This document shows positions 7,819 to 28,665 of a DNA stretch of 64,000 nt, in pieces. The notes beneath the pieces were generated by a model. The model was given only the letters and a program-made list of their open reading frames with translations, was not told where the DNA came from and did no database searches. The first letter of the stretch is position 1, and each line of letters opens with the position of its first letter. Both the position numbers and the translations under genes were made by a program. The stretch is from Escherichia coli 042 (GTDB taxonomy: Bacteria > Pseudomonadota > Gammaproteobacteria > Enterobacterales > Enterobacteriaceae), in NCBI RefSeq assembly GCF_000027125.1, contig NC_017626.1. One strand, given 5' to 3'.

Positions 7819-8337
7819 ATGCCAACCCCATGTTACATTTCAATTACAGGTCAGACCCAGGGGAACATCACTGCCGGTGCTTTCACCGCAGATTCTGTCG
7901 GCAATATCTACGTGCAGGGACACGAAGATGAAATGCTGGTGCAGGAGTTTCTGCATAACGTTACTGTTCCAACCGATCCACAGTCTGGTCAACCTTCCGG
8001 GCAGCGCGCGCACAAACCGTTCATTTTCACCGTGGCGCTGAACAAAGCCGTTCCGCTGCTGTACAACGCGCTGGCCTCCGGTGAAATGCTGCCGAAAGTG
8101 GAGCTGCACTGGTGGCGTACTTCAGTTGAAGGCAAGCAGGAGCACTACTTCACCACACGTCTTACTGACGCGACGATTGTGGACATGAACCTGCACATGC
8201 CGCACTGCCAGGACCCTGCACAGCGTGAGTTTACGCAATTGCTCGCAGTATCACTGGCATACCGTAAGGTTGAGTGGGAGCACATCAAATCCGGTACTTC
8301 TGGTGCCGATGACTGGCGTGCACCGCTGGAAGCATAA
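7819..8337 (+). CDS. hcp: T6SS inner tube protein Hcp
   Basis: 172-aa ORF with Hcp-family character; RBS AAGGAG 8 nt upstream; strong terminator downstream. Confidence 0.9.
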   Translation: MPTPCYISITGQTQGNITAGAFTADSVGNIYVQGHEDEMLVQEFLHNVTVPTDPQSGQPSGQRAHKPFIFTVALNKAVPLLYNALASGEMLPKVELHWWRTSVEGKQEHYFTTRLTDATIVDMNLHMPHCQDPAQREFTQLLAVSLAYRKVEWEHIKSGTSGADDWRAPLEA

Positions 8338-8348
8338 ATCTGAGTCAA

Positions 8349-8385
8349 CAACATCCTGCCTTCGTGCAGGATGTTGTTTTTGTAC
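8349..8385 (+). terminator. Rho-independent terminator after hcp
   Basis: Stem ACAACATCCTGC / GCAGGATGTTGT with 6-nt loop followed by TTTTT. Confidence 0.6.
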
Positions 8386-8557
8386 GTGTAAAAAATGAGT
8401 GTCAGTAAGGAGTTACGCTTTCATGAGGGAGATGGCGGATGCCGGAAACCCGGGCGGTAGCGTACCTGAAAATGTAAAGATGAGTGTAACGCTGCACTGG
8501 CACCCTTTGCTGCATGGTAAGAATCATTTGGTCCGTGAATAAATCAGGGAGGTCATT

Positions 8558-10516
8558 ATGTCCTTAAAAGGTCTGCGCTTTACGCTGGAGATTGACGGCC
8601 AGGAGCCGGACACCTTTGCAGTGGTGCATTTCAGGTTAATCCAGAACCAGTCTTATCCGTTTGTGATGAGTGTGGATGTTGCCAGCGACTCTTTTATGCA
8701 GACGGCGGAGATGCTGCTGGAGAAGAAGGCGACGCTGACCATCTGGCAGGGCGTCATCCCGCTGCGTTATGTCACCGGCGTGGTGGCGGGTTTTGGCATG
8801 CAGGAGAACAATGGCTGGCAGATGCGTTATCACCTGCGTATTGAGCCGCCGTTATGGCGGTGCGGGCTGCGGCAGAACTTCCGTATCTTCCAGCAGCAGG
8901 ATATCCGGACGATATCGGCCACGTTACTGAACGAGAACGGCGTCACGGAGTGGACACCGCTGTTTTATGAGGACCATCCGGCGCGGGAGTTCTGTGTCCA
9001 GTACGGGGAAAGCGACCTGGCGTTTCTGGCGCGGTTGTGGGCGGAGGAGGGAATTTTCTTCTTTGAGCGGTTTGCGGCGGACAGTCCGGAGCAGAAGCTG
9101 ACGCTGTGCGACGATGTGGCGGGGCTGTCACAGGCGGGAGAGCTTCCGTTTAACCCGGACACATCGGCAGGAGCGGAGACAGAGTGTGTCAGTATGTTCC
9201 GTTATGAGGCGTATGTCCGCCCGTCGTCGGTGCAGAGCCAGGATTACACGTTTAAGGTGCCGGACTGGCCGGGGATGTATGAGCAGCAGGGTGAGAACCT
9301 GAACGGACAGCTGGAGCAGTATGAGATATTTGATTATCCGGGAAGGTTCAAGGATGAACAGCACGGCAAGGATTTCACGCTGTACCAGATGGAGAGCCTG
9401 CGCAGTGATGCGGAAAAGGCCACAGGGCAGAGTAATTCACCGAAGCTGTGGCCGGGAACGCGGTTTACGCTGACGGGGCATCCGCAGAAGATGCTGAACC
9501 GTGAATGGCAGGTGGTACAGAGTATTCTGTCAGGGGACCAGCCGCAGGCGCTGCACGGCAGCCAGGGGAGAGGAACCACGCTGGGAAATCAGTTAGAGGT
9601 GATACCGGCGGACCGGACGTGGCGTCCACGGCTGCAAAGCAAACCGAAGGTGGACGGGCCACAGAGCGCCATTGTCACCGGTCCTGCGGGAGAGGAAATC
9701 TTCTGCGACGAACACGGACGTGTGCGAGTGCAGTTTCACTGGGACAGGTATAACCCGGCAACGGAGGCGAGTTCATGCTGGGTGAGGGTGTCGCAGGCGT
9801 GGGCGGGGCCGGGATTTGGTAACCTGGCGATACCGCGCATCGGCCAGGAAGTGATTGTAGACTTCCTGAACGGCGACCCGGACCAGCCGATAATCATGGG
9901 GCGGACGTACCATGAGGACAACCGTTCGCCGGGGAGTCTGCCGGGGACGAAGACGCAGATGACGATACGGTCGAAGACCTATAAAGGAAGCGGCTTTAAT
10001 GAACTGCGGTTCGAGGACGCGACGGACAAGGAAGAAATTTACCTGCACGCACAGAAAAATATGCAAGTCGTTGTGCTGAACAGCAAGGATAAGCGGGTCA
10101 ACTATGACCGGACGGTCAGCATCGGGCATGATGAATCCCTGGTGGTGGCAAATGACCGGAAAGTGACGGTTGAAGGTAAACAGGACCATAAAACCACCAA
10201 AGACCATGTCAGCCTGACAGAGGGCAATCAGGGGCTGGAGGTGAAAGGCGATCTGGCACAGAAAATAAGCGGCGCGCTGGGTATCAGCGTACAGGGCGAT
10301 ATTGTTTTACAGAGCGACAGCAAAATCAGTCTGCGGGTGGGCGGTTCATTTGTGGTGATCCATTCCGGCGGCGTGGATATTAAGGGCGCGAAAATCAATC
10401 TTAACGGCGGAGGCAGTCCGGGAGACGTGATCCTGCCGATGCGCCCGGTGATCCTGAAAGCCGCAGCCGGAAGCGGGACAATGTTTGTGGCGCACTGCCC
10501 GAAGGAGGATAAGTGA
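8558..10516 (+). CDS. vgrG: T6SS spike protein VgrG (core gp27/gp5-like, no long C-terminal extension)
   Basis: 652-aa ORF with VgrG character including the C-terminal repetitive beta-helix region (VVLNSKDKRVNYDRTVSIGHDESLVVANDRKVTVEG...). Confidence 0.9.
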   Translation: MSLKGLRFTLEIDGQEPDTFAVVHFRLIQNQSYPFVMSVDVASDSFMQTAEMLLEKKATLTIWQGVIPLRYVTGVVAGFGMQENNGWQMRYHLRIEPPLWRCGLRQNFRIFQQQDIRTISATLLNENGVTEWTPLFYEDHPAREFCVQYGESDLAFLARLWAEEGIFFFERFAADSPEQKLTLCDDVAGLSQAGELPFNPDTSAGAETECVSMFRYEAYVRPSSVQSQDYTFKVPDWPGMYEQQGENLNGQLEQYEIFDYPGRFKDEQHGKDFTLYQMESLRSDAEKATGQSNSPKLWPGTRFTLTGHPQKMLNREWQVVQSILSGDQPQALHGSQGRGTTLGNQLEVIPADRTWRPRLQSKPKVDGPQSAIVTGPAGEEIFCDEHGRVRVQFHWDRYNPATEASSCWVRVSQAWAGPGFGNLAIPRIGQEVIVDFLNGDPDQPIIMGRTYHEDNRSPGSLPGTKTQMTIRSKTYKGSGFNELRFEDATDKEEIYLHAQKNMQVVVLNSKDKRVNYDRTVSIGHDESLVVANDRKVTVEGKQDHKTTKDHVSLTEGNQGLEVKGDLAQKISGALGISVQGDIVLQSDSKISLRVGGSFVVIHSGGVDIKGAKINLNGGGSPGDVILPMRPVILKAAAGSGTMFVAHCPKEDK

Positions 10517-11355
10517 TGGAAACGGCACCCGTGCAGTACGCCATTGTGGATGGCGCTGTGGAGGAAGGATTGCTGGATTTTCTGAACGAGGTGAATCCCC
10601 CGCACTGTTGTCTGTATGCAGAACCCATACAACTGGATCTGGTCGCGCTAGCCCCCTATCTCGTGGAAGTCGTTCCGGAGGTTGAAGCATGGCTGAGTGT
10701 TAAGGCGTCGCCATGGGGAATATATCTGACTTCTGAGTCATCCATGCGTGAGCTACAGCAACACTTCAGACGTTATCTGTGGGTTAGGATCCCCGAACAG
10801 GAGAAACCTGTTCTCATGCGATTTTATGATCCCCGGAATATATGGGTATTAGTGGAAGTTCTGACCCCCCGCCAGCGTCTTTCTTTTATCAGTCCCGTCA
10901 GACAGCTAAGTACCCGTTATGGTGAAGAATGTCGTGAGGATAATTTTTCTTCCGTCCGTCCCGCAGAAACTATGAATATAAGGGCAGAACGGCCATCACA
11001 ACTGACGCTGAGTTACAGACAATATAGCCAACTGGAACGAAAGGCACGGGATAATTATCTTGATATATTATCTGCATTTATCGAAGAAAATGTAGATAAA
11101 AACGGATGGGATGATTCATCAAAAGCTGAATCATCCCGAATTCTGGCAGAAGATTATTTCTCTTTTTGCCAGTCATTAAATATAGCAGATGATCGTTCCG
11201 TCAGAACAATGACGCTTATATTACTGAAAAAAAATATAATCGATCTCAGATATATTCCGGATGACTGGTATGAACAACTCAGCAATCAGTCATACCCGGG
11301 ACATATTCGGGTACATGAACTTGCACAACAGGAACTGGGATTTATCCCACAATAA
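10516..11355 (+). CDS. DUF4123-family T6SS effector adaptor/chaperone
   Basis: Start overlaps the vgrG stop; sequence character (YAIVDGA...LAPYLVE...LMRFYDPRN) matches DUF4123 adaptors that load cargo onto VgrG. Confidence 0.75.
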   Translation: METAPVQYAIVDGAVEEGLLDFLNEVNPPHCCLYAEPIQLDLVALAPYLVEVVPEVEAWLSVKASPWGIYLTSESSMRELQQHFRRYLWVRIPEQEKPVLMRFYDPRNIWVLVEVLTPRQRLSFISPVRQLSTRYGEECREDNFSSVRPAETMNIRAERPSQLTLSYRQYSQLERKARDNYLDILSAFIEENVDKNGWDDSSKAESSRILAEDYFSFCQSLNIADDRSVRTMTLILLKKNIIDLRYIPDDWYEQLSNQSYPGHIRVHELAQQELGFIPQ

Positions 11356-11376
11356 AAAGACAAACGGATAGATTAT

Positions 11377-12948
11377 ATGACATCTCCATCTTCGACAGCC
11401 GGAAAGCCCTGTGTGGAATGCGGCATTCCTGATCCATGTATTTTTGATGTTATTAGTGATTTTCCAGAGGCCGGCGAGAAACATTTCTGGTCAAAAGAAG
11501 GAGTGGCGCGTTTTAAGCTACTGGATGATGGTTCCGGATGTGATGGTATAATTACCATTACCTACCAGTGCGATAAAAGTGGAACACATGAGGCATGGTT
11601 AGAGGAAGAATCAGAAAATAATCATAAGATACTGCAACCTTTCGGAATACCTAATAAGGTCACTTTGGATGATAACTTGTCTGAAGGTGAAATAATTGCT
11701 ATGGGTACATTTCGAGTACCATGGGATTATTTGGGGGCAATATCCTCTCCACTTAAGAATCATTATGAACCTGCCCATTATTCAGTCAGAATTGACAGTT
11801 GTTACGAATGTGGCAATTATGTTGAAATTGATGTTTATCCTACAGTGGAAATTAGGTTTACTACAGGGTTCAGCTATGAGATTTCGTCATCAAAACAGAC
11901 GAGAACAGTAAAAGAGCGGCGTGACGAAAGAATAAAAGCCAGGGACGCAATGGAGAACACCAAGCCCAGGGATAAAAATAAACTCCGTAGCGGCTGGACA
12001 AATACCACTGCTGAGTTTGAGTGGATAAACAAGACTTCCCTGACTGTCGATTTTGGCGTAAAAATAGCTAATGTTGAACACACAAGTGAATATGAAAAAG
12101 AGATAAAAAAACTTCGACAAACAAAGCAACTGGAACAGATAGGAAGAATTGACTCTCTGGTCAAGAATGTCAATAAATATTTTGCGCCAGATCCTGACAA
12201 TAATAATGGTACGCGCAAATATGCATTGTTCAGTGCAAAAATAGAACCCGTTAAACTGGGTATATCGTATGCCTATCAATATACCGATATCCAGGATGGC
12301 CCCTGTCATTTTTATGGTTTGTTTGGTGCCCCATTTTTTGAAGCGTCGTTCAGATTCGATATTATTTCATTTATATGTGCATATTGTAAAGTCGAGTCAT
12401 TGGTCAACAGATGTCGTGAATATCTCCGTAAAAACGGAGCCAGTGTTGAATGCTATATCGAGATTTCAGCGGAGATTAATCTTGATCTTGGCGCAGTATA
12501 CGCTGAAAAGGATAAAAAATGGGAGTTTAATGTAAAGGAAAGTAACATCAAGCTCGGTTTAAAAGGTGTGGTGAGTGCGACGTTTGAGGCGAATGTTTTT
12601 GTTGTACAACTGACCGCCGAAGCGACTGCCTCTATAGAAGCGAAAGCTGGATTTGGATTTGATTCACATGATGACGGACTGGACCTAGCATTATTTCATG
12701 ACGGCATTAAAGGGAAGTTTGAATTTAAGATTGATGTGTCTCATGGTGAAGTTGATGAAAAAGGAAAGGGGAAGGAAAAGAGCGAAAAACCTGAGAAGAA
12801 AGATACCGTTGAGTGGCAGTTATGTGATCCTATGGAGGTAAAGGATTCACCATTACGGGTTAATTTATACGGTAAAGAACGCACTGTGGAGAAAAAAGTA
12901 ACACCGCCGAAGCCAGTGACAACGTGGACGATAGGTATGGATTATTAA
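11377..12948 (+). CDS. Candidate VgrG-delivered T6SS effector, family not recognised
   Basis: 523-aa AT-rich ORF immediately after vgrG and DUF4123; Cys-rich N-terminus (CVECGIPDPC), Lys/Glu-rich C-terminus; no GxSxG or HxKxxxxD motif seen. Confidence 0.45.
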   Translation: MTSPSSTAGKPCVECGIPDPCIFDVISDFPEAGEKHFWSKEGVARFKLLDDGSGCDGIITITYQCDKSGTHEAWLEEESENNHKILQPFGIPNKVTLDDNLSEGEIIAMGTFRVPWDYLGAISSPLKNHYEPAHYSVRIDSCYECGNYVEIDVYPTVEIRFTTGFSYEISSSKQTRTVKERRDERIKARDAMENTKPRDKNKLRSGWTNTTAEFEWINKTSLTVDFGVKIANVEHTSEYEKEIKKLRQTKQLEQIGRIDSLVKNVNKYFAPDPDNNNGTRKYALFSAKIEPVKLGISYAYQYTDIQDGPCHFYGLFGAPFFEASFRFDIISFICAYCKVESLVNRCREYLRKNGASVECYIEISAEINLDLGAVYAEKDKKWEFNVKESNIKLGLKGVVSATFEANVFVVQLTAEATASIEAKAGFGFDSHDDGLDLALFHDGIKGKFEFKIDVSHGEVDEKGKGKEKSEKPEKKDTVEWQLCDPMEVKDSPLRVNLYGKERTVEKKVTPPKPVTTWTIGMDY

Positions 12949-13014
12949 GTGATATTACAGAAATTAAAAGTGAACAGTATAATGAGTATTTTCCCCTTTT
13001 GAGAGAGAATAATT

Positions 13015-14025
13015 ATGAAGGCAAAACATTTAATATCGGTTATTTTACTGTCAGGAGTTGTTATGGGAACTGGATTTTGCTCTAACGATAACCAGCAAAA
13101 AATTCGCAGTAAGTTTAATATTGAAGAGTCATATTGTGCCATTAAGACTAATGGCGTCCTCGGGTTCAGTAACCGAAGAAGTGCCTGGCGGGCAAATGGT
13201 GATTCAACCGGGGCCATATCCAGCACCAATGCCATGATGCTGATGGCGAATGGAGAAAATGAAATCAGTCTGGAGATTGGGGCATTAGGATGGTTTTCTG
13301 ACAAGCCTGCCAGTATGGAAGAACGGGGGCGTTTTTTTCCAAAAGCAGGATGCAGCCTGGATTTGGTTCGTTTTATTAAACAGGAGGAAACGCTGCTTTC
13401 TTCAATAAAAGTGACCATCAACCAGCAGGGCATACCTGAAGCCCGGCCAGACAGCGTGCATCCCGTTATCCGGAAAGAGATTTTGGCTGAGCAGGCGGAG
13501 CCAGGATTTATTGATCCAGATTATTTTGATGAAACCTATTTCCCGAAAGGGATGAAGGTGTATCAGTTCACTCAAAAAGTTACCGTGACAGGGCTTCCTG
13601 AATGGGCCTGGACGCGGGCAACCCCCTATACCGGAAGCGACGAGCAGTTACGGAAGTTAAAAGCCGCCTATACCGAAATGGCAAGCATCATCAGTAGCCG
13701 GGACAGGGCACGTCTGAAAGCTTATAACAAAGAGGCGCTGAAGGCATGGTCAGCCACAACCGGTGACTCTGAGGATGACATATTACTCTCACTCTTCTCA
13801 AAAGATAATGTGGAGGGAGGGAAAGCCAGAATGCAGCCCATCAGGTGGGACGATTATGCCGTCCGGGTTATGAATGGTGGACGTATGGTGCAGCTATATA
13901 ATAAATCGAAACCAATATATTCCCCACTGACTTACCGTTTTACAGATGAAAGTGGTGAAGAGCGTATGGGGTATTACGCTCCGGTATTTTCGCTGATTGA
14001 TGGTCAGTTTATCCCTGTTACTTGA
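13015..14025 (+). CDS. Exported protein, candidate cognate immunity protein
   Basis: 336-aa ORF with N-terminal signal peptide and a Cys after the hydrophobic core (MGTGFC); sits directly downstream of the candidate effector. Confidence 0.4.
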   Translation: MKAKHLISVILLSGVVMGTGFCSNDNQQKIRSKFNIEESYCAIKTNGVLGFSNRRSAWRANGDSTGAISSTNAMMLMANGENEISLEIGALGWFSDKPASMEERGRFFPKAGCSLDLVRFIKQEETLLSSIKVTINQQGIPEARPDSVHPVIRKEILAEQAEPGFIDPDYFDETYFPKGMKVYQFTQKVTVTGLPEWAWTRATPYTGSDEQLRKLKAAYTEMASIISSRDRARLKAYNKEALKAWSATTGDSEDDILLSLFSKDNVEGGKARMQPIRWDDYAVRVMNGGRMVQLYNKSKPIYSPLTYRFTDESGEERMGYYAPVFSLIDGQFIPVT

Positions 14026-14054
14026 TTAACCTGTTGGGCTACAAATCAGGATGT

Positions 14055-14098
14055 CCGGTAAGGTGATTATTACTGAGTTAAGCACCTTACCGTTTTTT
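14055..14098 (+). terminator. Rho-independent terminator after the effector/immunity pair
   Basis: Stem CCGGTAAGGTG / CACCTTACCG followed by TTTTTT. Confidence 0.55.
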
Positions 14099-14334
14099 AA
14101 ATTTTTTGTCGCTGATATTCCAGACAGGAAAACAATATGCCTTTAGCTGCCAGATTAAACGACAAAGGTACCGGCACAGGGAAAGATCACGTAACGCTGC
14201 TTTTTTGTACTAAATAATTCGCATTTTATGTTTAAAATTTGAGATATTCCTCATTACCTGAGGCTGTTTTTTATTACTTATACATGATCAAATACTCCTT
14301 ACATAATTAAGGGGAACAAAATGGAACTTAAAAA

Positions 14335-15262
14335 TTGATGGAACATATTTCTGTTATTCCCGATTACAGACAAGCCTGGAAAGTGGAACATAAATTGTCG
14401 GATATTCTACTGTTGACTATTTGTGCCGTTATTTCGGGTGCAGAAGGTTGGGAAGATATAGAGGATTTTGGGGAAACACATCTCGATTTTTTAAAACAAT
14501 ACGGTGATTTTGAAAATGGTATTCCTGTTCACGATACCATCGCCAGAGTTGTATCCTGTATCAGTCCTGCAAAATTTCACGAGTGCTTTATTAACTGGAT
14601 GCGAGATTGCCATACTTCAGATGATAAAGACGTCATCGCAATTGATGGAAAAACGCTCCGGCACTCTTATGACAAGAGTCGCCGCAGGGGAGCGATTCAT
14701 GTCATTAGTGCGTTCTCAACAATGCACAGCCTGGTCATCGGACAGATCAAGACGGATGAGAAATCCAATGAGATTACAGCTATCCCAGAACTTCTTAACA
14801 TGCTGGATATTAAAGGAAAAATCATCACAACTGATGCGATGGGTTGCCAGAAAGATATTGCAGAGAAGATACAAAAACAGGGCGGTGATTATTTATTCGC
14901 TGTAAAAGGAAATCAGGGGCGGCTTAATAAAGCCTTTGAGGAAAAATTCCCACTGAAAGAATTAAATAATCCAGAGCATGACAGTTACGCAATGAGTGAA
15001 AAGAGTCACGGCAGAGAAGAAATCCGTCTTCATATTGTTTGCGATGTCCCTGATGAACTTATTGATTTCACGTTTGAATGGAAAGGACTGAAGAAATTAT
15101 GCGTGGCAGTCTCCTTTCGGTCCATAATAGCAGAACAAAAGAAAGAGCCAGAAATGACGGTCAGATATTATATCAGTTCTGCTGATTTAACCGCAGAGAA
15201 GTTCGCCACAGCAATCCGAAACCACTGGCACGTGGAGAATAAGCTGCACTGGCGTCTGGACG
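14335..15262 (+). CDS. ISAs1-family transposase, exon 1 (reading frame interrupted by the group II intron)
   Basis: Near-identical to the intact copy-B transposase up to ...HWRLD; one base fewer than copy B in the A-run near the start codon region. Confidence 0.8.
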
Positions 15263-17153
15263 GTGTGCCGCAGGAACACAAGATAGCTGCATAAGGATAC
15301 GCAGTTAGCTTTTGTATAAGCTCATAAAGAGATGGTGGAAGGCCCACCGGGATCGGCTGTCGGAAGCAGATTCCAAACCACTTCATGCTGCTGTGGTAAA
15401 GAGCCATGGTAGTGAGCGATGAAGTAAAGCGTGAGTGAAAACTCAGCAGGTAAGATACTCATGAGACGAGTGAACCCGAACCCATGTTGACGCGTCGTAA
15501 ACCAGAGACTGACATCAAAACCGAAGGGGCGTCCAGCCTTCGGGATAAGTCTGCGAGTGAATTCCGAATGCTGCGCAGACGGTGTCCGGCGTAAAGTGGG
15601 CGTGACGGAGTATCAGGCTCTTCCTGGGAACTGCGGGAACCTGTCGTTGTGATGATAAGGGAGAAATGCAAGTCACTGAATTGGCGAGCATGAAAGTACC
15701 GATGCACAGCACAGGGACGGAGCCGTTCGTAGTAGTGATGAAGCTTCTGTAATGGAGGTGGAGCGAAGGGGCGGCATCAGACAGTCTTTGGACAGTGTTC
15801 AACTGAACATGTTCAGGAGGAGACAATGACAAAGACAAAAGCGTTTAACATTGATAAGTCACTGGTGGTCAGCGCGTACAGGCGAGTGAAGACCAGTGCA
15901 GGCGCGGCGGGAATTGATAAGCAATCGCTGGCGGACTTTGATAAACGGTTAGTTGATAATCTGTACAAAATCTGGAACCGACTTTCTTCAGGAAGTTATT
16001 TCCCACCGGCAGTGAAAGCGGTGGCAATTCCGAAGAAATTGGGTGGAGAGAGAATTCTGGGTATCCCGACAGTCAGCGATCGTATCGCGCAGACGGTGGT
16101 AAAACTGGCCTTTGAGCCACAGGTTGAGCCACATTTTCTGGCAGACTCTTACGGCTACAGACCGAATAAATCGGCACTGGATGCTATAGGGGTAACGCGT
16201 AAGCGTTGCTGGTATTACGACTGGGTACTGGAATTTGACATCAAAGGGCTGTTCGATAACATCCCGCACGAACTGATAATGAAAGCCGTGGACAAACACA
16301 ATCCGGCCCGGTGGGTAAAATTGTATATACAGCGGTGGCTGACAGCGCCGATGGTGATGTCAGACGGAGAAGTCAGAGCACGAACAATGGGAACGCCGCA
16401 GGGAGGTGTCATAAGTCCGTTGCTGGCAAACCTGTTCATGCATTATGTGTTTGATAAATGGCTGGCAAAATATTATCCGAAAGTGCCGTGGTATCGATAT
16501 GCTGATGATGGCATTTTGCATTGTCACAGCGAAGCAGAAGCGACTGAAATGCGAGAAGTATTACGCAAAAGATTTAGCGAATGCGGACTGGAAATGCATC
16601 CGGAGAAAACGCGAGTTATCTACTGCAAAGATGGAAGCCGGAAGGGTGATTATGAACATACCATGTTCGACTTTCTGGGGTACACATTCAGGCGACGCGT
16701 AGTAAAGAACGTTAAGCGAAACAGTCTGTTTGTAAGTTTTACCCCCGCAGCGAGCAAATCAGCGCTAAAGGCAATGCGTCGGGAAATCAAAGCGACAGGG
16801 ATAAGGAAAAGAGTGGATTTAAGCATTGAGCAGATAGCGAAATGGATAAATCCAAAACTGAATGGCTGGATAAATTATTACGGGCGATATACCTGTTCGG
16901 AATTATACAGCGTGTTCAGATATATCAATAAAGCACTGGTGAGGTGGGGGCGTAAGAAATATAAAATGCTCAGCCGATACAAGACAAGAGCCTCAAAATT
17001 TCTGGAAGAAATGGCGAAGCGAAGTCCACAGTTGTTTGCCCACTGGCGTCTGAAGATGAGAGGCGGACTTGTTTGATGGGAGCGGTATGAGCCGAGAGGT
17101 TCACGTACCGTTCTGCGAGAGGCTGCGGGGGAGGTTCCTGCGGCCTACTCACC
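15263..17153 (+). mobile_element. Group II intron, same orientation as the host transposase gene
   Basis: Exactly fills the gap between the copy-A junction CTGGACG|TGGTAATG and the uninterrupted copy B; starts GTGTG; encodes an RT/maturase; a domain V-like hairpin (GAGCCGAGAGGTTCACGTACCGTTC) lies near the 3' end. Confidence 0.8.
15826..17076 (+). CDS. Group II intron-encoded reverse transcriptase/maturase
   Basis: 416-aa ORF with RT motifs ([10 protein letters not shown], the YADD box in [12 protein letters not shown]) and a C-terminal maturase-like region. Confidence 0.9.
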
Positions 17154-17347
17154 TGGTAATGAATGAAGACGACTGCAAAATAAGAAGAGGAAATGCAGCA
17201 GAATTATTTTCAGGGATACGGCACATCGCTATTAATATTTTGACGAATGATAAGGTATTCAAGGCAGGGTTAAGACGTAAGATGCGAAAAGCAGCCATGG
17301 ACAGAAACTATCTGGCGTCAGTCCTTGCGGGGTGCGGGCTTTCGTAA
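17154..17347 (+). CDS. ISAs1-family transposase, exon 2 (C-terminal segment)
   Basis: Translation [64 protein letters not shown] matches the C-terminus of copy B. Confidence 0.75.
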
Positions 17348-17378: not shown

Positions 17379-18669
17379 CAGGGAAAGATCATCAGAAGTA
17401 CACTTTTTGTACTAAACAATTCGCATTTTATGTTTAAAAATTGAGATATTCCTCATTACCTGAAGCTGTTTTTTATTGCTTATACATGATCAAATACTCC
17501 TTACATAATTAAGGAGAACAAAATGGAACTTAAAAAATTGATGGAGCATATTTCTATTATCCCCGATTACAGACAAGCCTGGAAAGTGGAACATAAATTA
17601 TCGGATATTCTACTGTTGACTATTTGTGCCGTTATTTCTGGTGCAGAAGGTTGGGAAGATATAGAGGATTTTGGGGAAACACATCTCGATTTTTTGAAGC
17701 AATATGGTGATTTTGATAATGGTATTCCTGTTCACGATACCATTGCCAGAGTTGTATCCTGTATCAGTCCTGCAAAATTTCACGAGTGCTTTATTAACTG
17801 GATGCGTGACTGCCATTCTTCAGATGATAAAGACGTCATTGCAATTGATGGAAAAACGCTCCGACACTCTTATGACAAGAGTCGCCGCAGGGGAGCGATT
17901 CATGTCATTAGTGCGTTCTCAACAATGCACAGCCTGGTCATCGGACAGATCAGGACGGATGAGAAATCTAATGAGATTACAGCTATCCCTGAACTTATTA
18001 ACATGCTGGATATTAAAGGAAAAATCATCACAACTGATGCGATGGGTTGCCAGAAAGATATTGCAGAGAAGATACAAAAACAGGGAGGTGATTATTTATT
18101 CGCTGTAAAAGGAAACCAGGGGCGGCTAAATAAAGCCTTCGAGGAAAAATTTCTGCTGAAAGAATTAAATAATCCAGAGCATGACAGTTACGCAATTAGT
18201 GAAAAGAGTCACGGCAGAGAAGAAATCCGTCTTCACATTGTTTGCGATGTCCCTGATGAACTTATTGATTTCACGTTTGAATGGAAAGGTCTGAAGAAAT
18301 TATGCGTGGCAGTCTCCTTTCGGTCAATAATAGCAGAACAAAAGAAAGAGCCCCAAATGACGGTCAGATATTATATCAGTTCTGCTGATTTAACCGCAGA
18401 GAAGTTCGCCACAGCAATCCGAAACCACTGGCACGTGGAGAATAAGCTGCACTGGCGTCTGGACGTGGTAATGAATGAAGACGACTGCAAAATAAGAAGA
18501 GGAAACGCAGCAGAATTATTTTCAGGGATACGGCACATTGCTATTAATATTTTGACGAATGATAAGGTATTCAAGGCAGGGTTAAGACGTAAGATGCGAA
18601 AAGCAGCCATGGACAGAAACTACCTGGCGTCAGTCCTTGCGGGGAGCGGGCTTTCGTAATCTTGCCCTG
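17379..18669 (+). mobile_element. ISAs1-family (H-repeat) insertion sequence, copy B (intact)
   Basis: Same terminal inverted repeats as copy A; single uninterrupted transposase ORF. Confidence 0.8.
17523..18659 (+). CDS. ISAs1-family (H-repeat-associated) transposase
   Basis: 378-aa ORF; recognised H-repeat protein family. Confidence 0.9.
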
Positions 18670-24841: not shown

Positions 24842-24980
<139 letters not shown>

Positions 24981-26810: not shown

Positions 26811-27569
26811 ATGTCCTTCATGTCTTCGTTCTTTCACGGCAGATTTCTGCATCCAGGCGTGTTTTCGTTATGCGTTTTGCTCCCTTTACTCGCCAGCGCC
26901 ACCACATCACATATCTCTTTCAGCTACGCCGCCCGCCAGCGGATGCAAAACCGTGCGCGTTTATTAAAACAGTACCAAACCCATCTGAAAAAACAGGCCA
27001 GCTATATTGTGGAAGGCAATGCCGAAAGCAGAAAGGCGCTGCGCCAGCACAACCGCGAACAGATAAAACAGCATCCAGAATGGTTTCCTGCGCCGCTCAA
27101 GGCGAGTGACAGACGCTGGCAGGCGCTGGCGGAGAACAACCATTTCTTAAGCAGCGACCATCTGCACAACATCACCGAAGTGGCGATTCACCGCCTGGAG
27201 CAGCAGCTTGGTAAGCCTTACGTCTGGGGCGGCACGCGGCCCGATCAAGGCTTCGACTGTAGCGGGTTGGTTTTTTATGCCTACAACAAGATCCTCGAGG
27301 CGAAGCTCCCGCGCACGGCCAATGAGATGTATCACTACCATCGGGCAACGATTGTGGCGAATAACGACCTGCGCCGGGGAGATTTGCTGTTTTTCCATAT
27401 TCACAGCCGTGAGATTGCCGATCATATGGGCGTGTATCTGGGAGACGGTCAGTTTATCGAGTCGCCGCGCACCGGGGAAACCATTCGGGTAAGTCGGTTA
27501 GCTGAACCTTTCTGGCAGGATCATTTTTTAGGCGCGCGCAGGATTTTGACGGAAGAGACGATTTTGTAG
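26811..27569 (+). CDS. yafL: NlpC/P60-family peptidoglycan peptidase lipoprotein YafL
   Basis: 252-aa ORF with the NlpC/P60 catalytic Cys context (GFDCSGLVFYAY) and His (HMGVYLGDGQFIESP). Confidence 0.85.
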   Translation: MSFMSSFFHGRFLHPGVFSLCVLLPLLASATTSHISFSYAARQRMQNRARLLKQYQTHLKKQASYIVEGNAESRKALRQHNREQIKQHPEWFPAPLKASDRRWQALAENNHFLSSDHLHNITEVAIHRLEQQLGKPYVWGGTRPDQGFDCSGLVFYAYNKILEAKLPRTANEMYHYHRATIVANNDLRRGDLLFFHIHSREIADHMGVYLGDGQFIESPRTGETIRVSRLAEPFWQDHFLGARRILTEETIL

Positions 27570-27655
27570 GACGGATAAGGCGTTCACGCCGCATCCGGCA
27601 ATAGTGCACCGATGCCTGATGCGACGCTGCCGCGTCTTATCATGCCTACGAGTCT
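27568..27655. repeat. REP elements
   Basis: GGATAAGGCGTTCACGCCGCATCCGGCA ... TGCCTGATGCGACGCTGCCGCGTCTTATCATGCCTAC. Confidence 0.8.
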
Positions 27656-28247: not shown

Positions 28248-28665
28248 GCGCGGATGCCTGATGCGACGCAGGCGCGTCTTATCATGCCTACAAACTTGTG
28301 CCGGATCGGTGGGCCGGATAAGGCGTTCACACCGCATCCGGCAATTGTGCACCGGTGCCTGATGCGACGCTGGCGCGTCTTATCATGCCTACAAACCTGT
28401 GCCGGATCGGTGGGCCGGATAAGGCGTTCACACCGCATCCGGTAATTGTGCACCGGTGCCTGATGCGACGCTGGCGCGTCTTATCATGCCTACAAACCTG
28501 TGCCGGATCGGTGGGCTGGATAAGGCGTTCACACCGCATCCGGCAATTGTGCGCAGATGCCTGATGCGACGCTGACGCGTCTTATCATGCCTACAAACTT
28601 GTGCCGGATCGGTAGGCCGGATAAGGCGTTCACGCCGCATCCGGCAATTGTGCACCGATGCCGGA
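28248..28665. repeat. BIME/REP array (about four ~100-bp units) directly downstream of rayT
   Basis: Unit TGCCTGATGCGACGCTGGCGCGTCTTATCATGCCTACAAACCTGTGCCGGATCGGTGGGCCGGATAAGGCGTTCACACCGCATCCGG repeats with about 100-bp period. Confidence 0.85.

Follow-up and report, generated by a model that had tools for sequence, protein, structure and literature searches.

TpeV, an effector of the Aux 4 type VI secretion system (T6SS) cluster of Vibrio cholerae BGT49, is a protein of 535 amino acids with 11 cysteines and without a recognizable domain (Crisan et al., mSphere 2021, PMC8386463). Its gene follows a vgrG and a DUF4123 gene and precedes tpiV, which encodes a Sec-exported immunity protein, and a PAAR gene. 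Killing by TpeV is T6SS-dependent and reaches V. cholerae as well as Escherichia coli, the Aux 4 PAAR protein being dispensable for it; TpeV expressed in the periplasm leads to propidium iodide uptake and depolarization, and TpiV neutralizes TpeV. Homologues, often accompanied by several immunity genes, were recorded in E. coli, Salmonella, Citrobacter koseri, Yokenella, Serratia, Photorhabdus, and Pectobacterium (PMC8386463). Compared with this system here is a cassette of adaptor, effector, and immunity genes that lies directly behind vgrG in a stretch of 64,000 nucleotides from E. coli 042 (contig NC_017626.1; hereafter the window). It is highly probable that the effector and immunity genes of this cassette form a pair of the TpeV/TpiV family in E. 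coli.

An adaptor encoded between vgrG and the effector is what the cassette shares with VasX, VasW, and TsiV2 of V. cholerae and with other DUF4123-dependent effectors. The adaptors Tap6 and Tap14 bind the C-terminal helix-turn-helix of VgrG and the effector at once (Colautti et al. 2024, PMC11582642); the same survey names five DUF4123-dependent effector families, from which the TpeV-like family is absent. VasX likewise permeabilizes cells, and a target in the cell envelope is common to the DUF4123-dependent effectors compared here. However, the E. coli effector has no sequence relation to VasX or to Tle/Tla1, Rhs, MIX, alpha/beta hydrolase, or MATE effectors: it is without MIX motif, colicin domain, or lipase motif, and its predicted fold is all-beta, not helical.

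The closest described locus is ECUMN_0231-0233 of the uropathogenic E. coli (UPEC) strain UMN026, proposed as a chaperone/effector/immunity system from prevalence by polymerase chain reaction (PCR), reverse-transcription PCR, competition assays with wild-type strains, and docking (Casiano Gonzalez et al., PeerJ 2024, PMC11114119). The genes are transcribed in UMN026, which kills an isolate lacking them; as recounted in the same paper, they have been proposed as markers of urinary isolates. ECUMN_0232 was said to have 'no conserved domains' and TpeV is unmentioned (PMC11114119). All residues named there for the effector (S6, T7, A8, C12, S39, K40) and for the adaptor (L101, A225, D226, D227, Y261, P262) match the window proteins, as does the signal peptide quoted for the immunity protein, MKAKHLISVILLSGVVMG; by this comparison, the window genes appear to be those of ECUMN_0231-0233. 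With the family (TpeV/TpiV) published in 2021 and the locus in 2024, the window does not hold a new pair, and the first-pass annotation of this DNA, which had called the cargo unassigned and the pair a candidate new one, was wrong in that respect. Added here are the explicit link of ECUMN_0232 and ECUMN_0233 to TpeV and TpiV, a corrected start of the immunity gene, a PAAR stub that is unmentioned in PMC11114119, and structural and conservation leads on the mechanism of the TpeV family.

Homology of the cargo genes to TpeV and TpiV

The cassette belongs to a rightward string of genes, all on the plus strand, that starts with hcp (7819–8337, 172 amino acids) and continues with vgrG (8558–10516, 652 amino acids), a DUF4123 adaptor of the Tap/Tec family (ECUMN_0231; 10516–11355), the effector (ECUMN_0232; 11377–12948, 523 amino acids), and the immunity gene (ECUMN_0233; 13015–14025, 336 amino acids). 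The 523-residue protein has no match in Pfam, NCBIfam, PADLOC, or the sequences of the Protein Data Bank (PDB), and the profile of its superfamily (a 40-member alignment) found nothing in Pfam and PDB. MIX, GxSxG, GDSL, HxK, and HxSxG motifs are absent or unconserved, in line with the earlier reading of a protein without lipase GxSxG or PLD HxK. Its close relatives, all from Enterobacterales, fall into 37 clusters at 90% identity and include proteins with identities as low as 35%, and a profile built from 30 homologues retrieved only 80 representatives among 1.84 billion proteins.

TpeV came to notice through the literature, and the relation to it was established with homologues from V. fluvialis and Photorhabdus that appear in Table S1 of PMC8386463 rather than with TpeV itself. 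The 30-homologue profile matches cluster P0180, which includes the Table S1 entries A0A0F7LUJ5, A0A0F7LS95, A0A0F7LUE8, and A0A0F7LUE5, at 2.2e-25, and a cluster of 541-residue V. fluvialis proteins at 2.3e-6; two V. fluvialis proteins of 541 amino acids stand in Table S1 at about 1e-133 to TpeV (PMC8386463). BLASTP aligns residues 151–499 of the window effector with the V. fluvialis cluster P0259 at 2e-8, and hhalign aligns the 30-homologue alignment with the Vibrio TpeV clade end to end (99.9%, E 3.5e-36, 483 columns). When the AlphaFold2 (AF2) model of the effector was searched against AFDB50 with Foldseek, A0A380QA02, A0A1C7W8W6, and C7BTS6 were matched at 1e-21 to 4e-16, and all three are Table S1 entries (PMC8386463). 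By sequence and predicted fold, the 523-residue protein is thus a full-length distant homologue of TpeV, a proven antibacterial T6SS toxin.

The partner gene follows the same pattern. Direct searches of the same databases with the immunity protein found nothing, but the Aux 4-like V. fluvialis locus carries hcp, vgrG, a DUF4123 gene, a tpeV-like gene, a gene for 262 amino acids in the position of tpiV, and a PAAR gene, and hhalign matches the alignment of the 336-residue family to that fifth gene (7831–8619 of the locus) with 99.4% and E 5.6e-22. Because the comparison with this locus matches each of the two, effector and partner are both distant homologues of TpeV and TpiV, and the architecture of a VgrG-loaded effector with periplasmic immunity, which had been read from gene order, is borne out by homology and by the conserved linkage described below.

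The E. coli and Vibrio systems agree in full-length sequence and predicted-fold homology, in size (an effector of 523 amino acids vs. 535 in TpeV), in richness in cysteine (13 vs. 11), in an effector without signal peptide or hydrophobic segment, in the order hcp, vgrG, DUF4123, effector, Sec-exported immunity gene, PAAR, and in the association with transposases. They differ in that identity to the Vibrio clade is only 13–21%, which sets the E. coli protein in a separate Enterobacterales subfamily. Moreover, the E. coli cassette lies in a main T6SS cluster whereas TpeV is encoded on an auxiliary mobile island, its PAAR gene is truncated, its immunity protein has 336 amino acids where the Vibrio gene encodes 262 (and may be called short), and a C-terminal Pro-rich tail is a further difference. 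No E. coli accession was found in Table S1 of PMC8386463; the 'E. coli homologue' of Figure 4 in that paper may be the window protein. E-values suggest that Pectobacterium holds two effector subfamilies; an initial assumption that the Pectobacterium protein P0032 (535 amino acids) is the Table S1 entry C6DI52_PECCP was dropped, the accessions not being mappable. No later papers on the mechanism of TpeV were found in the literature searched.

The immunity protein was predicted from the outset to carry a signal peptide, and a hydrophobic N-terminal signal peptide is indeed kept in 28 homologues (29 sequences in all). The Prokaryotic Genome Annotation Pipeline (PGAP) starts the gene at the internal Met17 (13063) and thereby deletes this segment; because the signal peptide is conserved in homologues, the true start is 13015. 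A lipoprotein signal has been proposed for the protein (PMC11114119) but is doubtful since the residue concerned, Cys22, is not kept in the homologues analyzed here. Cys41 and Cys113, on the other hand, are invariant among them. The retention of the signal peptide and of this cysteine pair, together with four near-invariant cysteines of the effector, points to the periplasm as the site of action. In the AF2 model of the immunity protein, which is a confident one (pLDDT 89.8), the signal peptide is disordered and is followed by a beta-sandwich and, at the C-terminus, by an NTF2-like domain.

Linkage, spread, and exchange of the cassette

The cassette lies where a chromosomal type VI secretion cluster ends in hcp and vgrG. 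Positions 10513–14100 are 100% identical to many complete E. coli genomes, e.g., that of strain 118UI, in which the cluster reads tssH, tssL, tssK, tssJ, tagH, tssG, tssF, tssE, tssC, tssB on the minus strand, followed on the plus strand by hcp (annotated as 'Hcp family type VI secretion system effector') and vgrG, with the cassette at the cluster end; this end adjoins yafV, ivy, and fadE. The VgrG matches TIGR03361 of NCBIfam at 2.5e-179 and shows the Pfam domains Phage_GPD, Phage_base_V, and Gp5_trimer_C, so that gp27-like and gp5-like parts are both present; Pfam finds no C-terminal toxin domain, and the protein is the core-only spike that it had been taken for. In strain 118UI, PGAP marks vgrG as a pseudogene 'missing C-terminus', a flag that is probably an annotation artefact because a VgrG of equal length (652 amino acids) also stands before the cassette of Lelliottia, Dickeya, Symbiopectobacterium, and Photorhabdus.

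The adaptor matches Pfam DUF4123 (PF13503) at 2.7e-25 over residues 8–121, its N-terminal lobe, and NCBIfam Tla1 weakly (4.5e-10, under the curated cut-off). Its start is most likely ATG 10516, the PGAP call, rather than the alternative GTG 10513, because a Shine-Dalgarno sequence AAGGAGG sits 8 nucleotides upstream of this ATG and the first base of the codon is shared with the vgrG stop TGA (10514–10516). This one-base overlap and the gaps of 21 nucleotides between adaptor and effector and 66 nucleotides between effector and immunity gene agree with the tight spacing noted earlier.

Linkage was scanned in one genome per species, with 25 loci mapped by tblastn. A full adaptor gene stands directly 5' of the effector in 19 of the 22 loci whose upstream sequence is long enough to judge, usually with a vgrG of equal length before it; the three others have adaptor remnants (two loci) or a vgrG fragment only (one). 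Immunity genes follow on the 3' side in 20 of 21 judgeable loci, in numbers from one to at least five in tandem. The set spans nine genera (Escherichia, Lelliottia, Kluyvera, Brenneria, Dickeya, Symbiopectobacterium, Photorhabdus, Pectobacterium, and Serratia) and is kept down to 32% protein identity, which argues against its being a chance arrangement; linkage to vgrG and DUF4123 genes in other genomes, which the first-pass annotation had proposed to check, is therefore real. The immunity family is also larger than the effector family (193 vs. 37 clusters), and a larger family that occurs in arrays is the pattern expected of immunity genes. In Photorhabdus loci, 4 to 5 or more immunity paralogues form a tandem array. 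In Photorhabdus asymbiotica, a second full effector-immunity module (9268–12479 of its locus) lies behind short remnants of a vgrG and an adaptor, much like the orphan toxin modules known from Rhs and contact-dependent inhibition (CDI) loci.

Within E. coli, the cassette occurs in 339 of 5426 complete genomes (about 6%), in at least two allele classes, and 174 records match it at ≥99% identity. As had been observed in the first place, the cargo is richer in A and T than the T6SS core: G+C content is 40.4% in the effector gene, 46.6% in the immunity gene, and 45.1% in the adaptor gene, compared with 57.5% in vgrG, 54.3% in hcp, and 52.7% in the whole window. The idea of a horizontally exchanged cassette that was derived from this composition gains support because an 82%-identical allele, with an effector of 516 amino acids, sits in a different vgrG island of E. 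coli NE88, near yncG. That island (NZ_CM130026.1, 2614949–2625700) comprises, in this order, PAAR, vgrG, DUF4123, effector, immunity, and PAAR genes, a second, longer vgrG, and a 'peptidase M35' gene. The picture of an AT-rich, polymorphic cassette that moves between vgrG loci is thus supported; no orphan copies of the effector or immunity gene were found elsewhere in the 64-kb window.

The distribution also bears on whether the cassette serves competition between bacteria or attack on a host. If it were mainly an anti-host virulence factor of UPEC, the virulence-associated T6SS-2 would deliver the effector to eukaryotic cells, and the three genes are indeed over-represented in urinary isolates according to the reports cited in PMC11114119, which also describes the T6SS-2 cluster type as usually linked with virulence. 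The same paper, however, found no relation to symptoms (PMC11114119), the family is also found among plant pathogens, insect pathogens, and environmental Enterobacterales, and TpeV kills V. cholerae and E. coli. Exported immunity proteins, immunity arrays, and orphan modules moreover reflect self-protection against an antibacterial toxin acting in the periplasm. A primarily anti-host role is therefore very improbable, and the reading as an antibacterial TpeV/TpiV pair is kept in what follows.

The PAAR remnant and the downstream mobile elements

The immunity gene is followed by a terminator-like hairpin with a U-run (14056–14098, plus strand), in which a perfect stem of 10 base pairs at 14056–14092 precedes UUUUUU (free energy −16.6 kcal/mol, z −3.2). 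The first-pass annotation had closed the unit at this terminator. The hairpin itself stands, but it is not the end of the ancestral unit, because a PAAR gene remnant follows: 112 nucleotides 3' of the immunity gene lie the 12 opening codons of such a gene (MPLAARLNDKGT; 14137–14172, plus strand), whose residues are identical to those of the NE88 PAAR behind the immunity gene in 12 of 12 positions and to the Lelliottia PAAR in 10 of 12, and which are also similar to the Vibrio PAAR gene. NE88 has almost the same hairpin (98% identity over the stretch) behind its immunity gene, and there the PAAR gene that comes next is intact. The ancestral module included a PAAR gene, which is cut to 12 codons here. 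At the DNA level, NE88 can be aligned as far as 14172, and matches to ISAs1/ISEc1 begin at about 14172–14177.

Beyond this point lies an ISEc1 (ISAs1-family) transposase gene that is split by a group II intron (14335–17347); the parts of the intron are RF01999 (15334–15451), an ltrA reverse transcriptase gene (15826–17076), and RF00029 (17078–17153). A second, intact ISEc1 copy follows at 17523–18659.

Loss of the PAAR gene and invasion by mobile elements raise the question of whether the module is a decaying relic in the window strain, with genes that are intact and an effector that can no longer be delivered. The 12-codon remnant with ISEc1-related sequence beyond it, the intron-split and second ISEc1 copies downstream, the lack of any other PAAR-like sequence in the 64-kb window, and the PGAP pseudogene flag on vgrG in an identical strain all fit such decay. 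Yet each of the four open reading frames is full length and recurs with 100% identity in many genomes (174 records reach ≥99%), and the vgrG flag is probably an artefact given the 652-residue VgrGs kept in other genera. Since the Aux 4 PAAR is dispensable for killing by TpeV, truncation of the PAAR gene need not inactivate the system, and other PAAR genes may exist elsewhere in the genome. UMN026, furthermore, transcribes the genes and kills an isolate without them (PMC11114119). On balance, decay to an undeliverable relic is improbable, and a TpeV/TpiV-type effector-immunity module remains the preferred reading.

Six matches to the Rfam family naRNA4 (CssrE) were also noted in the window, at 24846–24923, 27569–27646, three in tandem within 28312–28591, and 51083–51159; they are unrelated to the cassette.

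Predicted structure and mode of action

The effector has 13 cysteines and a polar N-terminus (MTSPSSTAGKPC), and its highest 19-residue Kyte-Doolittle mean is 1.19; judged by hydropathy and the N-terminus, it has neither a signal peptide nor a hydrophobic transmembrane segment. Its AF2 model, of medium confidence (pLDDT 71.9, pTM 0.64), shows an N-terminal cysteine-rich beta domain, a few helices, and, between about 285 and 456, long strands of 18–23 residues that strictly alternate hydrophobic and polar residues, i.e., are amphipathic. In the model, these long amphipathic strands resemble those of outer-membrane barrels. Many homologues (P0031, P0032, P0034, and P0036, at columns of about 535–570 in the 30-homologue alignment, and P0159) terminate in PWAMGxNP, a motif that is doubled in Pectobacterium-type sequences and degenerate in the E. 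coli allele (TWTIGMDY).

In the superfamily alignment (40 members, 13–76% identity), Cys15 and Cys21 are invariant, and Cys65, Cys142, Tyr135, Pro155, Pro319, Asp328, Arg347, His441, Gly443, and Ser491 are at least 90% conserved; Asp328 stands in the context xDhhQ, His441 in YHDGI, and Ser491 in SxxRhxL, and residue 442, beside His441, varies. Asp328, His441, and Ser491 together with the four cysteines could represent a catalytic triad or a structural core.

Three identities considered for the effector were rejected. MIX motifs (hRxGhhYhh, shhPhR) are present in none of the 40 sequences. A Tle phospholipase or other alpha/beta hydrolase is disfavored by the lack of Pfam and NCBIfam matches, by GxSxG and HxK motifs that are absent or unconserved, and by a model that is mostly beta. 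A MACPF or perforin-like protein was dismissed as well; the lead had come from one UniRef entry named 'MACPF domain-containing protein' in the cluster of the V. fluvialis TpeV orthologue (P0259), in which Pfam detects no MACPF domain even at E≤10.

The effector fold also matches uncharacterized proteins of about 620–1080 amino acids (Foldseek AFDB50 ranks 10–27, E 1e-14 to 4e-4) from Colwellia, Flavobacterium, Niabella, Nitrincola, and Halomonas, some of them named 'fibronectin type-III domain-containing'. On the evidence of these models, the toxin fold may be used outside T6SS-adaptor contexts.

A course of events can be proposed from gene order, from other adaptors, and from the properties of TpeV and TpiV. 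The DUF4123 adaptor would fasten the 523-residue effector onto the C-terminus of VgrG, which has no toxin domain of its own, and when the sheath contracts, spike and cargo would be driven into the periplasm of a neighboring Gram-negative cell. There, by homology with V. cholerae TpeV, the cysteine-rich effector would damage the cytoplasmic membrane, which would become permeable and lose its potential, while in sister cells the Sec-exported 336-residue protein would bind the toxin in the periplasm and protect them, as TpiV does. The C-terminal amphipathic beta-sheet of the model might insert or oligomerize into a pore; among the molecular modes of action considered, such a beta-sheet pore is put forward tentatively as the likeliest, its chances being somewhat below even.

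Several points weigh against this interpretation. The study of the UPEC locus contains no toxicity assay, and the word 'mutant' is absent from its text (PMC11114119). With an identity of only 13–21% to the Vibrio clade, the protein may have changed in activity, and secretion competence is not assured in the window strain, whose module has its PAAR gene destroyed. The pore formers known from T6SS are helical, and their immunity proteins are often embedded in the membrane. A soluble immunity protein fits an enzyme equally well as a pore former, and the retention of Asp328, His441, and Ser491 by at least 95% of the members, in a superfamily otherwise 13–20% identical, is seen more typically with enzymes than with pore formers.

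These last points lead to a variant in which the effector, still as the toxin of a TpeV-family pair, would be a membrane-associated (e.g., lipid-degrading) hydrolase that uses the conserved Asp328, His441, and Ser491 on a beta-sheet or barrel scaffold, permeabilization being the consequence of lipid damage. The outer-membrane enzymes OMPLA, PagL, and LpxR work from a barrel scaffold and offer an analogy. There is, however, no match to a hydrolase family in Pfam, NCBIfam, or PDB sequences and no GxSxG, GDSL, or HxK motif, and position 442 next to the histidine is variable. A hydrolase of this kind is considered unlikely, and membrane permeabilization by a TpeV-type toxin in the periplasm remains the function favored for ECUMN_0232, whatever its chemistry.

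Because the family, the architecture, and the locus had all been published, the finding is an ordinary one as a discovery. The link to TpeV nevertheless gives ECUMN_0232 a concrete, testable function as an antibacterial toxin that acts in the periplasm and permeabilizes membranes. For the family as a whole, the predicted architecture of long beta-strands and the conserved residues Asp, His, and Ser provide two sharp hypotheses on mechanism. In the broadest form that can be drawn from the models, which is a doubtful one, TpeV-family toxins, the E. coli protein among them, would be the first T6SS toxins to insert into membranes by a beta-sheet or beta-barrel, either as a barrel pore of the bacterial cytoplasmic membrane or as a membrane-embedded hydrolase built around Asp328, His441, and Ser491; if true, such insertion would differ from that of the known helical, colicin-like pore formers of T6SS.

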